From NCBI GenBank assembly GCA_036253495.1, contig GCA_036253495.1_4125.1: a stretch of DNA of 64,000 nucleotides. One strand, 5' to 3'. Made by a program: the position numbers and the translations under genes. This document shows positions 1,805-60,770 of the stretch, piece by piece (the stretch's first letter is position 1; every line of letters begins with the position of its first letter). Under the pieces are notes generated by a model. It was not told where the DNA came from, did no database searches, and worked only from the letters and a program-made list of their open reading frames with translations. The stretch comes from a phage.

Positions 1805-2200
1805 ATGATTACTAAATTCTACGCTACCCGTGAAGCTGCCCGTATTGTTGCACGCGAGGAAGGAGCAGCATTTAAAGACATGGGCACGACCGCACCGAAA
1901 GGCCAACGCTGGGCCGTACAGTTCAAAGAAATCTCTGATATTGTGAATTCACCTGAACCAGTACTAACAGCAGCAGAACAGAAGAAAGCTGATGAACTGT
2001 CAGCAGTACTTAACGCTCAAGATGAATTTATCGCGGGTTCTGATATCAAAGTACAGGTAAATGCTAATGCATGGACTCACGCGGATCACCTGGCTAACCT
2101 GAAGCGTCCAAGTGAACTGGTTCGCAACCAGAAAGAGATCCGACACGACCGTAAGGGTAATCGTGTAACAGTATACAGTAAACGCCGCCAGGTTATCTAA
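1805..2200 (+). CDS. hypothetical protein, 131 aa
   Basis: track ORF 1796..2200; ATG 1805 preferred because AGGA 1793-1796 sits 8 nt upstream. Confidence 0.65.
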   Translation: MITKFYATREAARIVAREEGAAFKDMGTTAPKGQRWAVQFKEISDIVNSPEPVLTAAEQKKADELSAVLNAQDEFIAGSDIKVQVNANAWTHADHLANLKRPSELVRNQKEIRHDRKGNRVTVYSKRRQVI

Positions 2201-2222
2201 TAACTTGCAGTACTAACAACAC

Positions 2223-2247
2223 GGCGGGATCAGTTCCCGCCTTTTTT
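2223..2247 (+). terminator. rho-independent terminator
   Basis: GGCGGGA/TCCCGCC stem followed by T6. Confidence 0.8.
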
Positions 2248-2262
2248 ATAGGATAAACTAAA

Positions 2263-2517
2263 ATGATTAAGGTACAACTATCTAAAGATAATATCTTGCG
2301 GGTACACTATAAAGCCCCTCAGAGAATCATCACAAAGGCCGTACAGCTTGCTAATGAGTTTATTAATGGTAATCTATTGCCCAGGAAGTTAAGCAACGGC
2401 AAACTGCGTGTAATCGATGTAGACACTAACAACAGGATAGTAATCGAGAATACCGGAAAGATAAACCTCTATGAACACCAACAATATAATAAGAAAATAA
2501 AACTAATATCACGTTGA
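2263..2517 (+). CDS. hypothetical protein, 84 aa
   Basis: track ORF; SD AGGA; stop TGA lies inside next promoter -35. Confidence 0.65.
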   Translation: MIKVQLSKDNILRVHYKAPQRIITKAVQLANEFINGNLLPRKLSNGKLRVIDVDTNNRIVIENTGKINLYEHQQYNKKIKLISR

Positions 2518-3958: not shown

Positions 3959-4180
3959 ATGACTACAATGACTTGCATTTACGCTTCCAATCTTCTGAAT
4001 GATGCGGCCTTTAATGTTGATTCAGAATATCAATGTTATCGGGATGAAAATAAAAAAGTTTTTGTAGTTGATAATAATGGTTTCCATATTGAATTGCAAT
4101 CCGGCTTCACTGGCGTTGATGGTAAATCAGTATGGGGCGTACAGGATGATAAAGGTACATATCATTTTAAACGTAATTAA
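3959..4180 (+). CDS. hypothetical protein, 73 aa
   Basis: start re-set from 3791 (track ORF reads through promoter and hairpin); SD AAGGAATAAAATC. Confidence 0.65.
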   Translation: MTTMTCIYASNLLNDAAFNVDSEYQCYRDENKKVFVVDNNGFHIELQSGFTGVDGKSVWGVQDDKGTYHFKRN

Positions 4181-4183
4181 GTA

Positions 4184-4242
4184 TTGACAAAGTATCTTAG
4201 TACTGTATAATAGTTTACATCAAGGGGAGAATAGTTCTCCCC
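4184..4242 (+). promoter_or_regulatory. early promoter + leader hairpin
   Basis: TTGACA 4184-4189, N16, TATAAT 4206-4211; hairpin GGGGAGAA/TTCTCCCC 4224-4242. Confidence 0.75.
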
Positions 4243-4263
4243 GATACTAAAAGGAATAAAATC

Positions 4264-4671
4264 ATGACTACTACTAATCAAGCTCGGTCCATCGCCAACG
4301 ATAAAAATCATGCTGCAATGGTCGCTGGTTACATTGAAGCTATGCAATTCAGTACTGTACACAATGAGAACGGCGAATACCTGGAAGATTATGAATTATC
4401 AGAGCAAGCCCATCAAGCGGCAGTGATTGCATGTTCACGTTTCCTTGCTGTACATGGTGAAGATATGGAAACAGTACAAAAACACCATAATCCTGATTAT
4501 ACTTATAATCATGCAGGTCATGATCTCTTTCTTACTCGCGAAGGTCACGGTACTGGCTTTTGGGATCGTGATATCGGTCACTATGACGATGTATTCACTA
4601 AGTACTGCGAAGAAATCAACGTTTGCGATCCCTATGTAGGCGATGATAATCTAATCTATATGGGCGAATAA
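4264..4671 (+). CDS. hypothetical protein, 135 aa
   Basis: track ORF; SD AAGGAA; His/Gly-rich segment GHDLFLTREGHGTGFWDR; no family named. Confidence 0.75.
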   Translation: MTTTNQARSIANDKNHAAMVAGYIEAMQFSTVHNENGEYLEDYELSEQAHQAAVIACSRFLAVHGEDMETVQKHHNPDYTYNHAGHDLFLTREGHGTGFWDRDIGHYDDVFTKYCEEINVCDPYVGDDNLIYMGE

Positions 4672-4677
4672 AAGTAC

Positions 4678-4736
4678 TTGACAAAGTATATCAGTACTGT
4701 ATAATAGTTTACATCAAGGGGAGAATAGTTCTCCCC
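4678..4736 (+). promoter_or_regulatory. early promoter + leader hairpin
   Basis: TTGACA 4678-4683, N16, TATAAT 4700-4705; hairpin 4718-4736. Confidence 0.75.
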
Positions 4737-4758
4737 ACCAATAAAAGGAAACAACATT

Positions 4759-5031: not shown

Positions 5032-5219
5032 CAGTTGAAGAAGTTAAAAAAGTACTGGCAGTACTACGCTATCATAATCATTGCAAGGTGAAGAATGATC
5101 CTGATTATGTTGATTCATCCCTGGAGGAAGACACCTTAAACGCGATAAGCCATATGCAAACATTAGCAAAGCGTATGACCGAAAAGAATAGGCCGGACTA
5201 TATCGGAAATAAAATTTAA
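5028..5219 (+). CDS. hypothetical protein, 63 aa
   Basis: ATGA overlap with upstream stop. Confidence 0.6.
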   Translation: MTVEEVKKVLAVLRYHNHCKVKNDPDYVDSSLEEDTLNAISHMQTLAKRMTEKNRPDYIGNKI

Positions 5220-5226
5220 AAAGTAC

Positions 5227-5288
5227 TTGCATTGTAGTTAGATTAAAGTATAATGTTTTATATCGAGAGGGGGAAATGGTTTCCCCTC
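5227..5288 (+). promoter_or_regulatory. early promoter + leader hairpin
   Basis: TTGCAT 5227-5232, N16, TATAAT 5249-5254; hairpin 5267-5288. Confidence 0.7.
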
Positions 5289-44805: not shown

Positions 44806-44820
44806 TACATAATAAAAAAA

Positions 44821-45719: not shown

Positions 45720-45752
45720 GAGTGGCAATATATCTTTGTCACTCTTTTTTTT
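45720..45752 (+). terminator. rho-independent terminator
   Basis: GAGTGGCAA/TTGTCACTC stem (one G-U) followed by T8. Confidence 0.7.
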
Positions 45753-49190: not shown

Positions 49191-49218
49191 TATGCCCGAC
49201 TTTGTTCGGGCATCTTTT
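49191..49218 (+). terminator. rho-independent terminator
   Basis: ATGCCCGA/TCGGGCAT stem followed by T5. Confidence 0.85.
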
Positions 49219-49231
49219 TAAGGAAAAGTAA

Positions 49232-49504
49232 ATGGACTATCGAGTACTGAATAGAACATATAAAGCTTTATACAAAACATATATTGAAAGTAAAGTACAT
49301 AATCCTATCATTTATAAAAATCCAGTTTATATTATATGGAATGAATATTTTACAATGATTCAAAATTACTTTTACTCTAACGAAATCTTTATAGATGGTG
49401 AAATGCGTAAGCTAACACGCGTTGATAGTATAGGTGGTGAAATTGTGTTATTCTATACTGATTCTATTATTGGACAACAATCTATAAATTTAGAGATATT
49501 ATAA
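49232..49504 (+). CDS. family C (provisional) paralog C1, 90 aa
   Basis: N-term Y..L..TYK.LY; IFIDGEMRKLTRVDSIGGEI. Confidence 0.65.
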   Translation: MDYRVLNRTYKALYKTYIESKVHNPIIYKNPVYIIWNEYFTMIQNYFYSNEIFIDGEMRKLTRVDSIGGEIVLFYTDSIIGQQSINLEIL

Positions 49505-49770
49505 TGAATTATAAGGATTTACATTTCACCTATAAACTAACATTTTATATGTATCGTTATGCTGATAACAACTTCATGGATAATGCATTTTATCATCGTT
49601 TGTGGAGTGATTATATAAATTCTTTACGTGAACATTTTATAGGTACTATAATTCAATACGAAGGTAAAACAGTAAAAATATTTCAAGTTGATAGTTACAA
49701 CGGGGATCTATGCTTCAAGGGTAGAGATTCTAGTGATGGATTACATGAGATTTATATCTATGAATTATAA
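49504..49770 (+). CDS. family C paralog C2, 88 aa
   Basis: MNYKDLHFTYK; HFIGTIIQYEGKTVKIFQVDSYNGDL. Confidence 0.7.
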   Translation: MNYKDLHFTYKLTFYMYRYADNNFMDNAFYHRLWSDYINSLREHFIGTIIQYEGKTVKIFQVDSYNGDLCFKGRDSSDGLHEIYIYEL

Positions 49771-50035
49771 GGATTTACAATTCACGTACAAAATTCTTCA
49801 TGAACAATATGAACGTGGTGAAGGAATATTAACTTACGATGAACGAGATTTTTTTCTTACATTGTGGTGTGAATATTTGGCAATGATTAACGAGATTTTT
49901 GTTGATAAAGAATATATGATTGACGACATGACTGTACGTATTATCAGAATTAAAAGTTATAATGGAAGTCTTGTTGGAATTTACTATAACAATGAAAAGG
50001 CGAAAAGCGGATTTGTTGATTTGGAGTATCTATGA
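49760..50035 (+). CDS. family C paralog C3, 91 aa
   Basis: start re-set from 49688 to MNYKDLQFTYK; MTVRIIRIKSYNGSL. Confidence 0.7.
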   Translation: MNYKDLQFTYKILHEQYERGEGILTYDERDFFLTLWCEYLAMINEIFVDKEYMIDDMTVRIIRIKSYNGSLVGIYYNNEKAKSGFVDLEYL

Positions 50036-50295
50036 ACTATAATGATTTACAATTCACGTATCAACTTTTATATGATGATATGAATAACGAATTAGGTTTC
50101 TACTATGAAGTACGTAATAAAATATGGTCAAATTATCTATCTGAGATACAACATCATTTTATAGGACTTCCAATACGTAGAAATAATAAAAACTATCGTT
50201 GTACTGATGTAGTAAGTCATAGAGGTAGGTTGCGTTTAGAATTCTACCGCAGAGACGGGGACTTCATTGGTATAAATTTACTGGATTTTAAATGA
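50032..50295 (+). CDS. family C paralog C4, 87 aa
   Basis: MNYNDLQFTYQ; HFIGLPIRRNNKNYRCTDVVSHRGRL; ATGA overlap. Confidence 0.7.
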   Translation: MNYNDLQFTYQLLYDDMNNELGFYYEVRNKIWSNYLSEIQHHFIGLPIRRNNKNYRCTDVVSHRGRLRLEFYRRDGDFIGINLLDFK

Positions 50296-50580
50296 TGAAA
50301 AACAACTTAAAGGAAATACAAGTATTTTATAGATTCTTATACTTGTCATATGTAACAGATGAGTACTATGAAAGTGTGTATTATTTTTTTATGGCAACAT
50401 TACCGTACTATAGTAAGAGATTTATATATAGGAAAATCTATCATATCCAATGGTGAAAAATGTACCTGTACAGATGTTGTTAGTTTTAATGGTTCTTTAA
50501 CACTGTGTTTCAGATGCGATAATAATAGTGGGTCATTTTCATTAAACGTATATCAGTTAGAAGGAATAAATTTTGAATAA
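50292..50580 (+). pseudogene. family C paralog C5 split by a frameshift at a T7 run (pseudogene, slippage site or sequencing error)
   Basis: frame 0 from ATG 50292 gives the family N-half and stops at 50456; the family C-half (LWQHYRTIVRDLYIGKSI...TDVVSFNGSL) is in the +1 frame; frames meet at T7 50384-50390. Confidence 0.55.
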
Positions 50581-50773
50581 GTGTCCATATTGTAACAGTA
50601 CTCAATTAGCTCGTTTCCGCTTAGATTCAGACTGGGCCACTGGTGCTGGGGATTTCTTTCCCATCAATGATGATGCGGAATACACTGAAGAACAGCACAA
50701 AGATTTTGATAAATCATGGCGACCTGACATTGAGTGCATTTATTGCCTTAATTGTGAGCGTGTACATGACTAA
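50573..50773 (+). CDS. small zinc-ribbon protein, 66 aa
   Basis: CPYC...CIYCLNC (two CxxC pairs). Confidence 0.65.
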   Translation: MNKCPYCNSTQLARFRLDSDWATGAGDFFPINDDAEYTEEQHKDFDKSWRPDIECIYCLNCERVHD

Positions 50774-51029
50774 AGCTGAACTAATAGTTCATACATATAA
50801 AATGATATACAGTACTGAGTTATCCTGTGGTGCAGATAATCCAGTACTGGACTATTTTATAGAATCTTTGAAAGAACATTATATTGGTAAATCACTGATT
50901 CTTAATAATATTAATTTCACTGTAAAGGATGTAGCACCTGGAAAAAACGTACTAATAGTATGTGTTACTTCATCTGATAACCCAGTATACCCAATAACAA
51001 TAATTTTTGAGGTATTAGGTGATTTATGA
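50766..51029 (+). CDS. family C paralog C6, 87 aa
   Basis: start re-set from 50643; HYIGKSLILNNINFTVKDV. Confidence 0.65.
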   Translation: MTKAELIVHTYKMIYSTELSCGADNPVLDYFIESLKEHYIGKSLILNNINFTVKDVAPGKNVLIVCVTSSDNPVYPITIIFEVLGDL

Positions 51030-51316
51030 ATATCATTTTAATACAGAAAACATATGCTATATTGGTGAAAGATTATTCCATTACATTCGATTCACAAGAA
51101 AGTGCTCTACATAACCTATACAAAAACGTAACACAAGAATACAGAAATATGTTTTCTGACTTAGTAGTAGGAAGATATTTCAGTACTAGAAAATATCCAA
51201 AACTTCAAGCAGAGGATGTTTCTTTTTATTTCAATGGTCATATTACTATTCATAGTTTAGACCAAAATTCACCAACGTACTTAAACTTTTCATTCGATGA
51301 GGTAACCTTTTTATGA
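51026..51316 (+). CDS. family C paralog C7, 96 aa
   Basis: LVVGRYFSTRKYPKLQAEDV; ATGA overlap. Confidence 0.6.
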   Translation: MNIILIQKTYAILVKDYSITFDSQESALHNLYKNVTQEYRNMFSDLVVGRYFSTRKYPKLQAEDVSFYFNGHITIHSLDQNSPTYLNFSFDEVTFL

Positions 51317-51495
51317 GAACATTATTTTTTATCTGGAGTCTTTTTTCTCTTGCAGTACTGACAGTTGCAGGTGCTTATTCATTTTTAACAATGAATACAT
51401 GGTATATCAATTTACTATTTCCAATTGTCGGTGTAGGTTTAGGATTTACTTTACATAGTGTATGTAAGGATTTCAATGACAAATCAAACAAATGA
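51313..51495 (+). CDS. small membrane protein, 60 aa (two TM helices)
   Basis: FFIWSLFSLAVLTVAGAYSF and INLLFPIVGVGLGFTLHSV; ATGA overlap. Confidence 0.6.
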   Translation: MRTLFFIWSLFSLAVLTVAGAYSFLTMNTWYINLLFPIVGVGLGFTLHSVCKDFNDKSNK

Positions 51496-51760
51496 AGTAC
51501 TTATTGCTGAAACAATGAAGATGATTTATAGTATTACTACAGCACAGAATATGCCCTATCCCATTAAGTCTTTATTGAGGACCGTGTATCTTGTGACTGT
51601 GCAGGAATACTATAAATCCAAGCACAAAAGCATTATTAGTGTTTATCGTGATTATGAAAGGATTCGTATTTTGTACTGGAACAAGAACCGAGTACGTTCT
51701 GAATGTGACCTTGCGGACTTCAAATTAGAGAATCTTTATTGTTATAAAGCGGGACAGTAG
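51476..51760 (+). CDS. family C-like paralog C8 (divergent), 94 aa
   Basis: start re-set from 51458; size and position only, weak similarity. Confidence 0.5.
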   Translation: MTNQTNEVLIAETMKMIYSITTAQNMPYPIKSLLRTVYLVTVQEYYKSKHKSIISVYRDYERIRILYWNKNRVRSECDLADFKLENLYCYKAGQ

Positions 51761-51778
51761 TATAAGTAGTGATATAAT
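51751..51778 (+). promoter_or_regulatory. promoter with extended -10
   Basis: GGGACA 51751-51756, N16, TGaTATAAT ending 51778. Confidence 0.55.
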
Positions 51779-51818
51779 TGTTGGTATGGAATAATAACTA
51801 ACACAAGGAGCGTGTAGA

Positions 51819-52547
51819 GTGATTGACCGTATCAGATTTGCCAGCGAGTTAGCAAACCAATTAAACATTGCAAATTTCCAAATGCTAACATCCGTAATGG
51901 CAGAACATGCAACTGCATATTCAGTAAGTGGTGTCCAATGCGGACAAGAGAATTTACTAGCTGATGTATACAGTGAAGTGCAAGGTAAACAATATTCAGT
52001 CAAAACATACAAGGATAAGTTTGTTAGTCTGTATATGAACGGCGATATTGAAGAAGAACGTAAGTTTACCGATTTTATTATTGAACGTCGTGTATCAGGT
52101 GTGTCAAACCCGAATGCTGCAAGTGATGTAGTATTTGATGAAGTACTGAAAGATATATACGAAAATGAAGCGAAAAGTAAGAATCATTACAATGTACGTG
52201 AAACTAACACAGTGCTCTTGGGATATGATGAAGACGAATTTTTCTATTATTTCCGTATAACTGAAGTACCTTTTGATTATAAAAAACCACATACCACATG
52301 TGCTCGTGAATTTACTGAAAAGAGTAAAAACTACAAAAAGCACGAAGGCAATCGTTGTAGTGTAAATGGTTATGATGAGAATGGTGTACACATTTATGAA
52401 TGGGTACATCCGAACTGTCAGACTTACACACGTTGCCTTAAAAAGAGATATAATTTAGAAGAACATGAGTCTTTCTACTTCAAAGTTAAGAAGCAAGATT
52501 ATAACAGACCAGACGATTCTGAATTACTTGGTATGATTTACTTCTAA
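51819..52547 (+). CDS. hypothetical protein, 242 aa (GTG start)
   Basis: SD AAGGAG 9 nt upstream of GTG 51819. Confidence 0.7.
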   Translation: MIDRIRFASELANQLNIANFQMLTSVMAEHATAYSVSGVQCGQENLLADVYSEVQGKQYSVKTYKDKFVSLYMNGDIEEERKFTDFIIERRVSGVSNPNAASDVVFDEVLKDIYENEAKSKNHYNVRETNTVLLGYDEDEFFYYFRITEVPFDYKKPHTTCAREFTEKSKNYKKHEGNRCSVNGYDENGVHIYEWVHPNCQTYTRCLKKRYNLEEHESFYFKVKKQDYNRPDDSELLGMIYF

Positions 52548-52555
52548 GGTAAGTT

Positions 52556-52834
52556 ATGAATTTACAAAGAGATGTGTGGACATATGAATATCTTTTAGAA
52601 CTTTATGGTGATATGTATATTAAAAATAAACCATACATAGACGATATAAGGGCTATGATAGATGATTTTTCTTCTGAGTTTATTCCACTTTATACTAATA
52701 AAGAAGTTACACATAAATCAATGAATAAATCAGGTATCATTGATGAAATTGATTTTGATACACATGGTGTGTATTTTTATATTATTTTCTCCAATGATAC
52801 TGTTGGTATATACACGTATAAAGAATTAAAATAA
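52556..52834 (+). CDS. family C-like paralog C9, 92 aa
   Basis: helical N-half, beta-like C-half GIIDEIDFDTHGVYFYIIF. Confidence 0.55.
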   Translation: MNLQRDVWTYEYLLELYGDMYIKNKPYIDDIRAMIDDFSSEFIPLYTNKEVTHKSMNKSGIIDEIDFDTHGVYFYIIFSNDTVGIYTYKELK

Positions 52835-52839
52835 GTACA

Positions 52840-52866
52840 GGCCAGCATGGATTGCTGGTCTTTTTT
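52840..52866 (+). terminator. rho-independent terminator
   Basis: GGCCAGCA/TGCTGGTC stem followed by T6. Confidence 0.8.
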
Positions 52867-58166: not shown

Positions 58167-58433
58167 ATGGATATTAATAAAGATTTTAGATTTATCAATT
58201 CGCATATACAAGTACTGAAAACATTAGTAAAACAAGTATCAGAAAAATACACAGGAACTTATGTTAGATGTGCTTTTGATGCAAATGACTGGCAACGAAT
58301 TATAAAAATAGATTCAGTTTATCTTGATACAAATAATAGTATTACAGTTTCAGGTATTGATATGTATGGTCATCGATATCAATTTACTACAAGAGCCACA
58401 ATAACTACAGTGGATGGATATGAATACGAATGA
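58167..58433 (+). CDS. family C paralog C15, 88 aa
   Basis: KYTGTYVRCAFDANDWQRIIKIDSV. Confidence 0.65.
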   Translation: MDINKDFRFINSHIQVLKTLVKQVSEKYTGTYVRCAFDANDWQRIIKIDSVYLDTNNSITVSGIDMYGHRYQFTTRATITTVDGYEYE

Positions 58434-58719
58434 ATTCCAAGCATTATTGAAAACATTATATCTTCTTAAAGAAGAATCTCTTGCAATGTATAATGAAAAA
58501 CAATACAAGTTTGAAGAACAACTCATTCATTTTCATGATGAATATCTTGACTTTTTGAATAAAAAATACTCAAATGTTCAGTGCAAATATCGAGGTAGTG
58601 ATGTTATTATTACCGAAATCGAATCCAGTACTTACGGATATCCATACCTTTGTTGCAAATATATCCCAAGTAATATAACATTTCGCTCAAGAATGTATTC
58701 GAGGTTTATTTTTTCATGA
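58414..58719 (+). CDS. family C paralog C16, 101 aa
   Basis: KYSNVQCKYRGSDVIITEIESS. Confidence 0.6.
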   Translation: MDMNTNEFQALLKTLYLLKEESLAMYNEKQYKFEEQLIHFHDEYLDFLNKKYSNVQCKYRGSDVIITEIESSTYGYPYLCCKYIPSNITFRSRMYSRFIFS

Positions 58720-60175: not shown

Positions 60176-60474
60176 ATGAACTATTACTTTGTCATAAAAC
60201 ATACATTATGCTATTCAGAACGTGCCATGATATGCGAATTGAGGGGATACTAGACTACCCAACTATGATGATTAACTTCAGGGTGTTAATGGATTCATAT
60301 TCACAATCTGTTATTGATGCATTTGAAGGTAGAGAAATAAAGTTCAAAAATGCCAGGACAAATAATGAGCTATGTGATACAATTAAATCAGTGGGGATTT
60401 CGGTTCCAAATGTGTACGTAATCCCATTGATGTACGGAAAAGTAGTATCCACTAACGAAATTATTAGTATATGA
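60172..60474 (+). CDS. family C-like paralog C22, 100 aa
   Basis: FEGREIKFKNARTNN; ATGA overlap. Confidence 0.55.
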   Translation: MNELLLCHKTYIMLFRTCHDMRIEGILDYPTMMINFRVLMDSYSQSVIDAFEGREIKFKNARTNNELCDTIKSVGISVPNVYVIPLMYGKVVSTNEIISI

Positions 60475-60770
60475 TTAAAACATTATATGAAGCAGAAGAA
60501 ACATATAAACTTCTGTGGGAAACTTTTATTTTTGACAAATACTATAATAGAACTGAATGGTTAGAGGTAAGTAAAATATATCTTCAAATTTTAAATGATT
60601 ATTTTTGTCCGTTCGTTGCTGAATGTAAAAATAATCCAATTGAAGAAATTAATATAATCGAAATAGTAGATGGGTTTGGTGCGTGGTTGATATACCAAGA
60701 CAACTATCACTTTTCTAATTATATCGAAGATATCGGTAAAATAATTGTAATTAAAGGAGTCATACTATGA
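60471..60770 (+). CDS. family C-like paralog C23, 99 aa
   Basis: size, position, helical N-half; ATGA overlap. Confidence 0.55.
   Translation: MIKTLYEAEETYKLLWETFIFDKYYNRTEWLEVSKIYLQILNDYFCPFVAECKNNPIEEINIIEIVDGFGAWLIYQDNYHFSNYIEDIGKIIVIKGVIL

Follow-up and report, generated by a model that had tools for sequence, protein, structure and literature searches.

Programmed transcriptional slippage in bacteria takes place at conserved runs of 9-11 A or T (PMC1088944; PMC4256274). Described sites include the A9 of Thermus dnaX, the A9 or T9 of insertion sequence (IS) elements, the T9 of Shigella mxiE and the A11 of Citrobacter tssM1 (PMC1088944, PMC4256274), the last with 20-25% slippage (PMC4256274). 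E. coli RNA polymerase slips detectably on T-runs only if these are at least seven nucleotides (nt) long. At a run of seven T (T7), insertion rescued ~5% of GFP and next-generation sequencing found 0.75% insertions; at T8, deletion gave 10% rescue (PMC6260861). We analyzed a stretch of phage DNA of 64,000 nt (GenBank assembly GCA_036253495.1, contig GCA_036253495.1_4125.1), hereafter the window, in which a small gene at 50292..50580 is split by a frameshift at a T7 run. The interrupted gene, its neighbours and the two terminator-like hairpins described here are on the plus strand, and positions are those of the window unless another locus is named. We found that the break is almost certainly a private, non-programmed, one-base homopolymer expansion from T6 to T7, whether it is real or an artefact.

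The site resembles the sites of programmed transcriptional slippage in that an A/T run joins two overlapping frames of one protein. Those sites are 9-11 nt long, are conserved together with their two-frame organization and give 20-50% shifted product, whereas the phage run is 7 nt long and occurs in one record, and its homologs have a single frame. The formally slippery T TTT TTT is also a likeness to sites of programmed ribosomal frameshifting, both the -1 type (X XXY YYZ with a 3' structure) and the +1 type of prfB. Unlike those, the phage site has a dead-end -1 frame and lacks a 3' structure, an A-site codon that is hungry or a stop, a Shine-Dalgarno stimulator and conservation. The 'savior' rescue of mboIIM2 deltaA356 (PMC6260861) is similar in that T7 lies at or next to a frameshift lesion and is read by E. 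coli RNA polymerase. By analogy, rescue on the order of 1-5% would be expected, a figure that comes from other constructs and not from the phage site, where the late transcription apparatus may differ. In addition, mboIIM2 deltaA356 is rescued by insertion of a U, whereas the phage site needs deletion of a U, which has been quantified only for T8 (10%). Nothing distinguishes the phage site from a non-programmed homopolymer frameshift in a phage accessory gene: an A/T run differs in length by one base in a single record, and all relatives have an intact gene. Features of this kind are ordinary and have been described before.

The interrupted gene and its two reading frames

A direct read of the window placed the T7 run at 50384-50390, with two frames meeting there, and all of the coordinates given in an earlier, sequence-only reading of this DNA held. 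The codons at the junction in frame 0 are GTG TAT TAT TTT TTT ATG. The open reading frame (ORF) 50292..50456 translates as MMKNNLKEIQVFYRFLYLSYVTDEYYESVYYFFMATLPYYSKRFIYRKIYHIQW and contains 32 native residues (31 if counted from ATG 50295) and a 22-residue out-of-frame tail, FMATLPYYSKRFIYRKIYHIQW, before TGA at 50454-50456. From ATG 50292, the native, in-register part is MMKNNLKEIQVFYRFLYLSYVTDEYYESVYYFF and the out-of-register continuation is MATLPYYSKRFIYRKIYHIQW. The C-terminal two thirds of the protein (50391..50580) are in the +1 frame, as the sequence-only reading had stated. This frame is already open before the T-run (the mechanical ORF is 50359..50580), ends at TAA 50578-50580 and encodes FLWQHYRTIVRDLYIGKSIISNGEKCTCTDVVSFNGSLTLCFRCDNNSGSFSLNVYQLEGINFE, which includes ...FLWQHYRTIVRDLYIGKSIISNGEKCTCTDVVSFNGSLTLCF....

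Deletion of one T restores a single ORF, which has 95 amino acids (aa) if it starts at ATG 50292 and 94 aa if it starts at ATG 50295. The predicted 95-aa family member was thus borne out, and the same sequence was found in relatives: the repaired junction, ...ESVYYFLWQHYRT..., is identical to what they carry. The extra T is the sole lesion of the gene in the window. The tryptic peptide FLYLSYVTDEYYESVYYFLWQHYR is diagnostic of the full-length or rescued protein, and FLYLSYVTDEYYESVYYFFMATLPYYSK of the truncated product. Alignment with phages A4, PBECO4 and 121Q, translations of the orthologs, and a match of the repaired protein to the family phrog_21004 (below) identify the gene as the ortholog of A4 gp415 (USL83491.1) and 121Q gp426.

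The start of the gene had been placed at ATG 50292. This codon is present in the window, but otherwise only in A4 and three contigs from Logan; the start common to all relatives is the second ATG, at 50295. The ATGA overlap with the upstream paralog, C4, is real, and the C4 stop is TGA at 50293-50295.

Judged from the sequence, translation should reach the C-terminal part only if ribosomes slip by +1 or if the transcript has six U (U6). We considered independent translation of the C-terminal half from ATG 50359 and rejected it as a significant route. There is no purine-rich Shine-Dalgarno sequence upstream of this codon, and, of the modelled fold described below, helix 1 and a portion of helix 2 would be missing from the product.

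The orthologous site in other Asteriusvirus genomes

The window is from an Asteriusvirus, a PBECO4/121Q-like jumbo phage of E. coli (~350 kb). It is closest to Escherichia phage A4 (ON286972.1), with 99.1% identity over 2.2 kb, and the gene order around the interrupted gene is the same as in A4 and in two other loci of our comparison, L031 and L032. Most other Asteriusvirus genomes align only from window position 50266 on, because they carry different paralogs upstream. The gene is annotated in A4 as an intact coding sequence (CDS) of 285 nt, A4_415, and is an intact 94-aa ORF in 121Q (2029..2313 of locus L003).

Direct reading of the run at the orthologous locus of 25 distinct phages in GenBank gave T6 in 24, all of which encode an uninterrupted protein of 92-94 aa; the other, CMSTMSU, had T5. 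We also compared a 101-nt query across the run to GenBank and matched 33 records (31 distinct phages). The query spanned 100 nt in every matched record except CMSTMSU (99 nt), and no record was 100% identical. Based on the 100-nt span, seven further GenBank records are one base shorter than the window, and therefore T6. Both of two JGI metagenome contigs had T6, as did three Logan assemblies (ERR7425836, SRR9693738 and ERR14127509), which encode an intact 95-aa protein with the ATGATG start found in the window. That is, T6 and one frame were present in 36 usable assemblies (24 read directly, 7 by span, 2 from metagenomes and 3 from Logan), and T7 was present in the window only. Even the divergent ortholog in ph0011 (synonymous divergence, dS, 0.50; non-synonymous divergence, dN, 0.31) has T6, within TATTATTTTTTATGGCAACA, and stays open in one frame. 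The check in relatives that the sequence-only reading had proposed thus found the same sequence, not an unrelated one, with T6 and one uninterrupted frame.

Other searches for the T7 allele gave the same picture. We used a variable-gap pattern that allowed run lengths of 4-10. It matched only 121Q itself, with T6, in IMG/VR, two contigs, neither with T7, in JGI metagenomes, and nothing in GTDB genomes. There was likewise no match among complete E. coli genomes or among plasmids, and a look-up of the exact product of the upstream paralog returned no record.

We considered the T5 of CMSTMSU as natural length variation and rejected it as a sequencing artefact. This record (MH494197.1; L021, 68298-70024) is flagged UNVERIFIED_ORG and has 10 one-base homopolymer deletions in 1.7 kb compared to Ecwhy_1. 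It is unreliable for any frameshift question.

The annotation of the ortholog varies among deposited genomes. An intact 94-aa ortholog is unannotated in PBECO4, phAPEC6, UE-S1, UB and Turkey3 (L002, L008, L011, L013 and L026, respectively). The 121Q annotation starts gp426 at an internal ATG and gives it 78 aa (L003 2077-2313), though the full ORF at 2029..2313 is open.

Family, predicted fold and constraint

The repaired protein belongs to a family that is arrayed in tandem in the window. With phmmer, it matched all four of the tandem paralogs that lie upstream (E = 6e-9 to 4e-5), and jackhmmer added paralogs at 50766-51029, 58414-58719 and 60471-60770; the window holds at least eight family paralogs, the interrupted gene included. 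The repaired protein also matched phrog_21004 essentially end to end (residues 4-89 on profile positions 2-99 of 101, E = 3.3e-5). One polypeptide gives this full-length match only after one T is removed; as encoded, the two halves are in different frames. On these comparisons, the family relation of the repaired protein is judged not to be due to chance. The sequence-only reading had described a family N-half and a family C-half. The C-half alone matches the paralogs (E = 1e-6 to 3.5e-4), but the N-half alone had no significant match to them with phmmer, and its membership in the family follows from the full-length profile match and the intact orthologs.

The four upstream neighbours match both phrog_21004 and phrog_32291. 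These PBECO4 p140-like families are proteins of ~90-100 aa that occur in tandem arrays in Asteriusvirus and whose function is not known, and the repaired protein is like them. A Pfam search for a function of the family gave no match, and a PHROGs search gave only families without known function. We modelled the intact ortholog with AlphaFold2 from an alignment of 11 family sequences, and the model was confident (predicted local distance difference test score, pLDDT, 90.1; predicted template modelling score, pTM, 0.77). A structure search of BFVD with this model found that only uncharacterised proteins from Asteriusvirus (including slurp01) and other phages share the fold. We do not claim an RNA-polymerase-binding Tudor function for the family.

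In the model, two helices (residues 6-22 and 27-45) form a hairpin, and a small four-stranded beta domain or barrel (residues 49-85) comes after them. The frameshift, at residue 32/33, falls within helix 2 of the model. The product of 53 or 54 aa would be without most of helix 2 and the entire beta domain and, on this model, should be non-functional.

Comparisons of orthologs indicate that the gene is conserved under constraint in relatives. The 121Q ortholog differs from that of slurp01 by 5 synonymous and 0 non-synonymous changes, and from that of JP4 by 4 synonymous and 0 non-synonymous changes. The repaired window copy differs from A4 by 3 synonymous changes and 1 non-synonymous change, so the two proteins differ by a single residue. 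Variable sites among close orthologs at codon positions 1, 2 and 3 number 0, 6 and 8, respectively. Because the gene is constrained and the window copy has no second lesion, the break would be recent or not real. An old, decaying pseudogene, that is, a family member that has long been non-functional and is drifting, is extremely improbable. With at least eight paralogs in the window, redundancy is plausible, and annotators skipped the gene in five deposited genomes (above), but those skipped copies are intact ORFs. In addition, the substitutions among orthologs are mostly synonymous, and the window copy, one residue away from the A4 protein, shows no further damage.

Features of programmed recoding

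The sequence-only reading had raised the possibility of deliberate slippage. In this case, T7 would be a programmed site of transcriptional or ribosomal slippage, or a phase-variable tract, and would give two products or an on/off switch. We examined the run for the features of each of these.

For -1 ribosomal frameshifting, T TTT TTT fits the X XXY YYZ heptamer in frame 0 (TAT TTT TTT), but the match is formal only. There is no substantial conserved extension in the -1 frame, which reads YGNITVL and then stops (after 7 codons), and the family C-half needs the +1 frame. There is also no stimulatory hairpin or pseudoknot in the 80 nt downstream of the run. This sequence folds no better than its shuffles (minimum free energy -9.6 kcal/mol, compared to a shuffle mean of -11.4; z = +0.60).

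A shift of +1 would lead to the right frame: re-pairing of tRNA-Phe by +1, like the loss of one U from the transcript, restores the wild-type sequence exactly. But the features of a prfB-type site were absent. In frame 0, the run is followed by AUG as the A-site codon, which is neither a stop nor rare and is not slow, and the upstream sequence, GAAAGTGTGTATTA, has no GGAGG-like element that could serve as a Shine-Dalgarno-like stimulator.

As for transcriptional slippage, a run must have at least seven T before E. coli RNA polymerase slips on it detectably (PMC6260861), and the phage run is at this lower limit. Efficient slippage in bacteria typically needs at least 9 nt (PMC1088944), and the known programmed sites are conserved at 9-11 A or T (PMC1088944, PMC4256274), but the phage run has 7 nt and is private to the window. 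A T7 run inside a CDS is not in itself a signal. The window is 34% GC and has 80 runs of A6 or T6 and 18 runs of 7-8 A or T, and 13 of the 17 other long runs (7-8) are within intact long ORFs. A7 and T7 runs are routine in intact ORFs of this genome.

The run also does not behave as a phase-variable locus. The tract was not polymorphic in length among good-quality isolates, all of which have T6; the only other variant was the T5 of CMSTMSU. This argues against a contingency locus. The two-frame arrangement was conserved in none of the 36 usable assemblies. Relatives without a conserved two-frame arrangement were the ground on which the sequence-only reading itself would have given up a switch, and the switch reading therefore fails. 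We regard deliberate recoding as highly improbable.

It is similarly very unlikely that the T7 allele is real and is kept as a low-output, two-product locus, making mostly the 53/54-aa peptide and a few per cent full-length protein via U6 transcripts or a +1 slip on UUU UUU. Such a locus would be the beginning of a dosage or on/off switch based on slippage, within an accessory gene family of a jumbo phage.

Mutation or sequencing error

Two of the three explanations offered by the sequence-only reading survive, a fresh pseudogene and a sequencing error; a deliberate slippage switch does not, given the single frame and T6 of relatives and the lack of recoding features. Both survivors fit a private, non-programmed expansion from T6 to T7, and the quality of the assembly bears on the choice between them.

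We compared the window to A4 over 46 kb at 98.4-99.6% identity. The T at 50384 was the only frameshifting indel within a CDS. Other indels were multiples of three, compensating pairs, or intergenic homopolymer differences, and the only homopolymer-length differences besides the T7 run were the intergenic 44814-44820 (A7 in the window, A6 in A4) and 45745-45752 (T8 in the window, T10 in A4). Among A4 ORFs of at least 60 aa that have a window counterpart with at least 85% identity (n=161), one was split into two frames in the window: the interrupted gene. An alignment of the window with the Logan contig L032 covered 14.46 kb and had 180 mismatches and exactly one gap, the extra T. The window assembly is not error-prone. 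One change from six to seven among ~100 long runs is unremarkable, whether it is a mutation or a residual consensus error.

A miscall of homopolymer length in assembly or base calling, such that the phage has T6 and an intact gene, is a serious possibility with a little less than an even chance. All other usable assemblies have T6, the change is of exactly the type that sequencing platforms make, and CMSTMSU, of the same genus, has a length error at the same run, among the ten in 1.7 kb. The gene shows no other sign of decay, and the T7 products are in no independent assembly. Set against this, there was no other homopolymer trouble in the window: there were no further split ORFs among the 161 and no second gap in the 14.46 kb aligned with L032, and thirteen 7-mers in CDSs stay in frame. 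Long-read sequencing typically errs in homopolymers by deletion, whereas a miscall at this run would have added a base; CMSTMSU, too, shows only deletions.

We put at about even the chance that the extra T is truly present in the phage DNA, as a recent loss-of-function or leaky allele; this judgement draws on sequence comparisons. A real recent mutation is slightly favoured over an assembly miscall, because the rest of the window is free of homopolymer trouble and the change is an insertion. Several points weigh against a real mutation. Homopolymers are the classic place for consensus errors, and a polished long-read or hybrid assembly could have kept one error among the ~100 A/T runs of at least 6 nt in the window. 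In addition, neither the 54-aa nor the 73-aa fragment was recorded as a called gene in any assembly of a large collection, leaving the T7 allele without independent confirmation.

We also found broken genes in other deposited genomes. In JP4 (L012), a private 1-nt deletion in a G-run at window-equivalent 51592 truncates the ortholog of the gene that ends at 51760. In SD-15_S21 (L015), a deletion of 176 bp at window-equivalent 50999-51174 fuses the orthologs of 50766-51029 and 51026-51316. Private gene-breaking indels are thus seen in two other deposited genomes within the same 1.4-kb block, which speaks for a real mutation in the window. The JP4 deletion, two genes downstream of the interrupted gene, is a private event comparable to the T7 allele, whereas CMSTMSU is a case of many miscalls.

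If the T7 allele is real, events may have been as follows. Replication slippage on the T-run would have recently added one T (T6 to T7), shifting the frame in an otherwise conserved 94-aa accessory gene and creating a fresh loss-of-function allele. This allele would yield a 53/54-aa peptide made of helix 1, the start of helix 2 and 22 junk residues. Full-length protein might be made adventitiously, at a few per cent at most, by either of two routes. E. coli RNA polymerase might drop one U on the U7 tract. Alternatively, tRNA-Phe might slip +1, from UUU at 50385-87 to UUU at 50386-88, followed by UUA and UGG, which would restore ...YYFLWQ... exactly. A small adventitious yield of this kind is plausible if T7 is real. 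The phage would tolerate the loss since the gene is probably a non-essential member of a tandem paralog family.

Genes around the interrupted gene

The interrupted gene lies in a tightly packed block, 49232-52834. A terminator-like hairpin (49192..49213) precedes the block, and another (52839..52861) closes it. Immediately upstream is C4 (50032..50295), which encodes an 87-aa paralog (phrog_21004, E = 4.7e-12) and whose stop overlaps both candidate starts of the interrupted gene (ATGATG). Three more tandem paralogs, found with phmmer and jackhmmer, are at 49232-49504, 49504-49770 and 49760-50035, with overlapping stops and starts (phrog_32291, E = 7e-10 to 3e-12). The last of these, C3, carries an in-frame T7 at 49849-49855 (GAT TTT TTT CTT, encoding DFFL), at a nearly homologous position in the family alignment. 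The C3 run has the same length in A4, and the Phe/Leu-rich motif of the family tends to produce T-runs.

Downstream is a gene (50573..50773) for a 66-aa CxxC...CxxC protein of phrog_22354, with a TTG start that overlaps the stop of the intact gene. The two CxxC pairs gave only sub-threshold matches in Pfam, to a Lar restriction-alleviation protein (E = 0.19) and to a zinc ribbon. This gene has its own Shine-Dalgarno sequence, GAAGGA, at 50561-50566 (in CAGTTAGAAGGAATAAATTTTGAATAAGT). In the T7 state, ribosomes would stop 117 nt before TTG 50573 and translational coupling would be lost. Any polar effect on 50573-50773 is probably partial, because the downstream gene has its own GAAGGA.

A mosaic boundary is present at window position 50266, ~26 nt upstream of the start of the interrupted gene. 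The four upstream paralogs (49232-50295) are common only to the window, A4 and the Logan contigs, and the PBECO4/121Q group has different paralogs there, of 88-103 aa (121Q, L003 1176-2066). The last upstream gene in that group overlaps the ortholog by 38 nt, compared to the ATGA overlap in the window.

A repeated intergenic element with a GGGG-AATGGTT-CCCC hairpin (GTTTACATCAAG.GAGGGGAATGGTTCCCCT) is present in A4 and between the small genes with which the window opens. Copies in the window are at 1028-1122, 1296-1392, 4174-4275, 4672-4737 and 5217-5285.

Significance

Our results give the T7 run little biological weight: the indel is private, changes a homopolymer by one base and lies in a gene of unknown function that is probably non-essential. 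For annotation, 50292/50295-50580 is best treated as one frameshifted gene, the ortholog of A4_415, with a note of pseudogene or 'low-quality sequence', or corrected from the reads, and not as two small ORFs. The comparison also reveals that the annotations of several deposited Asteriusvirus genomes lack the intact ortholog or give it a wrong start. If T7 is real, the window carries a natural knock-down allele that could be used to probe what this paralog family does.
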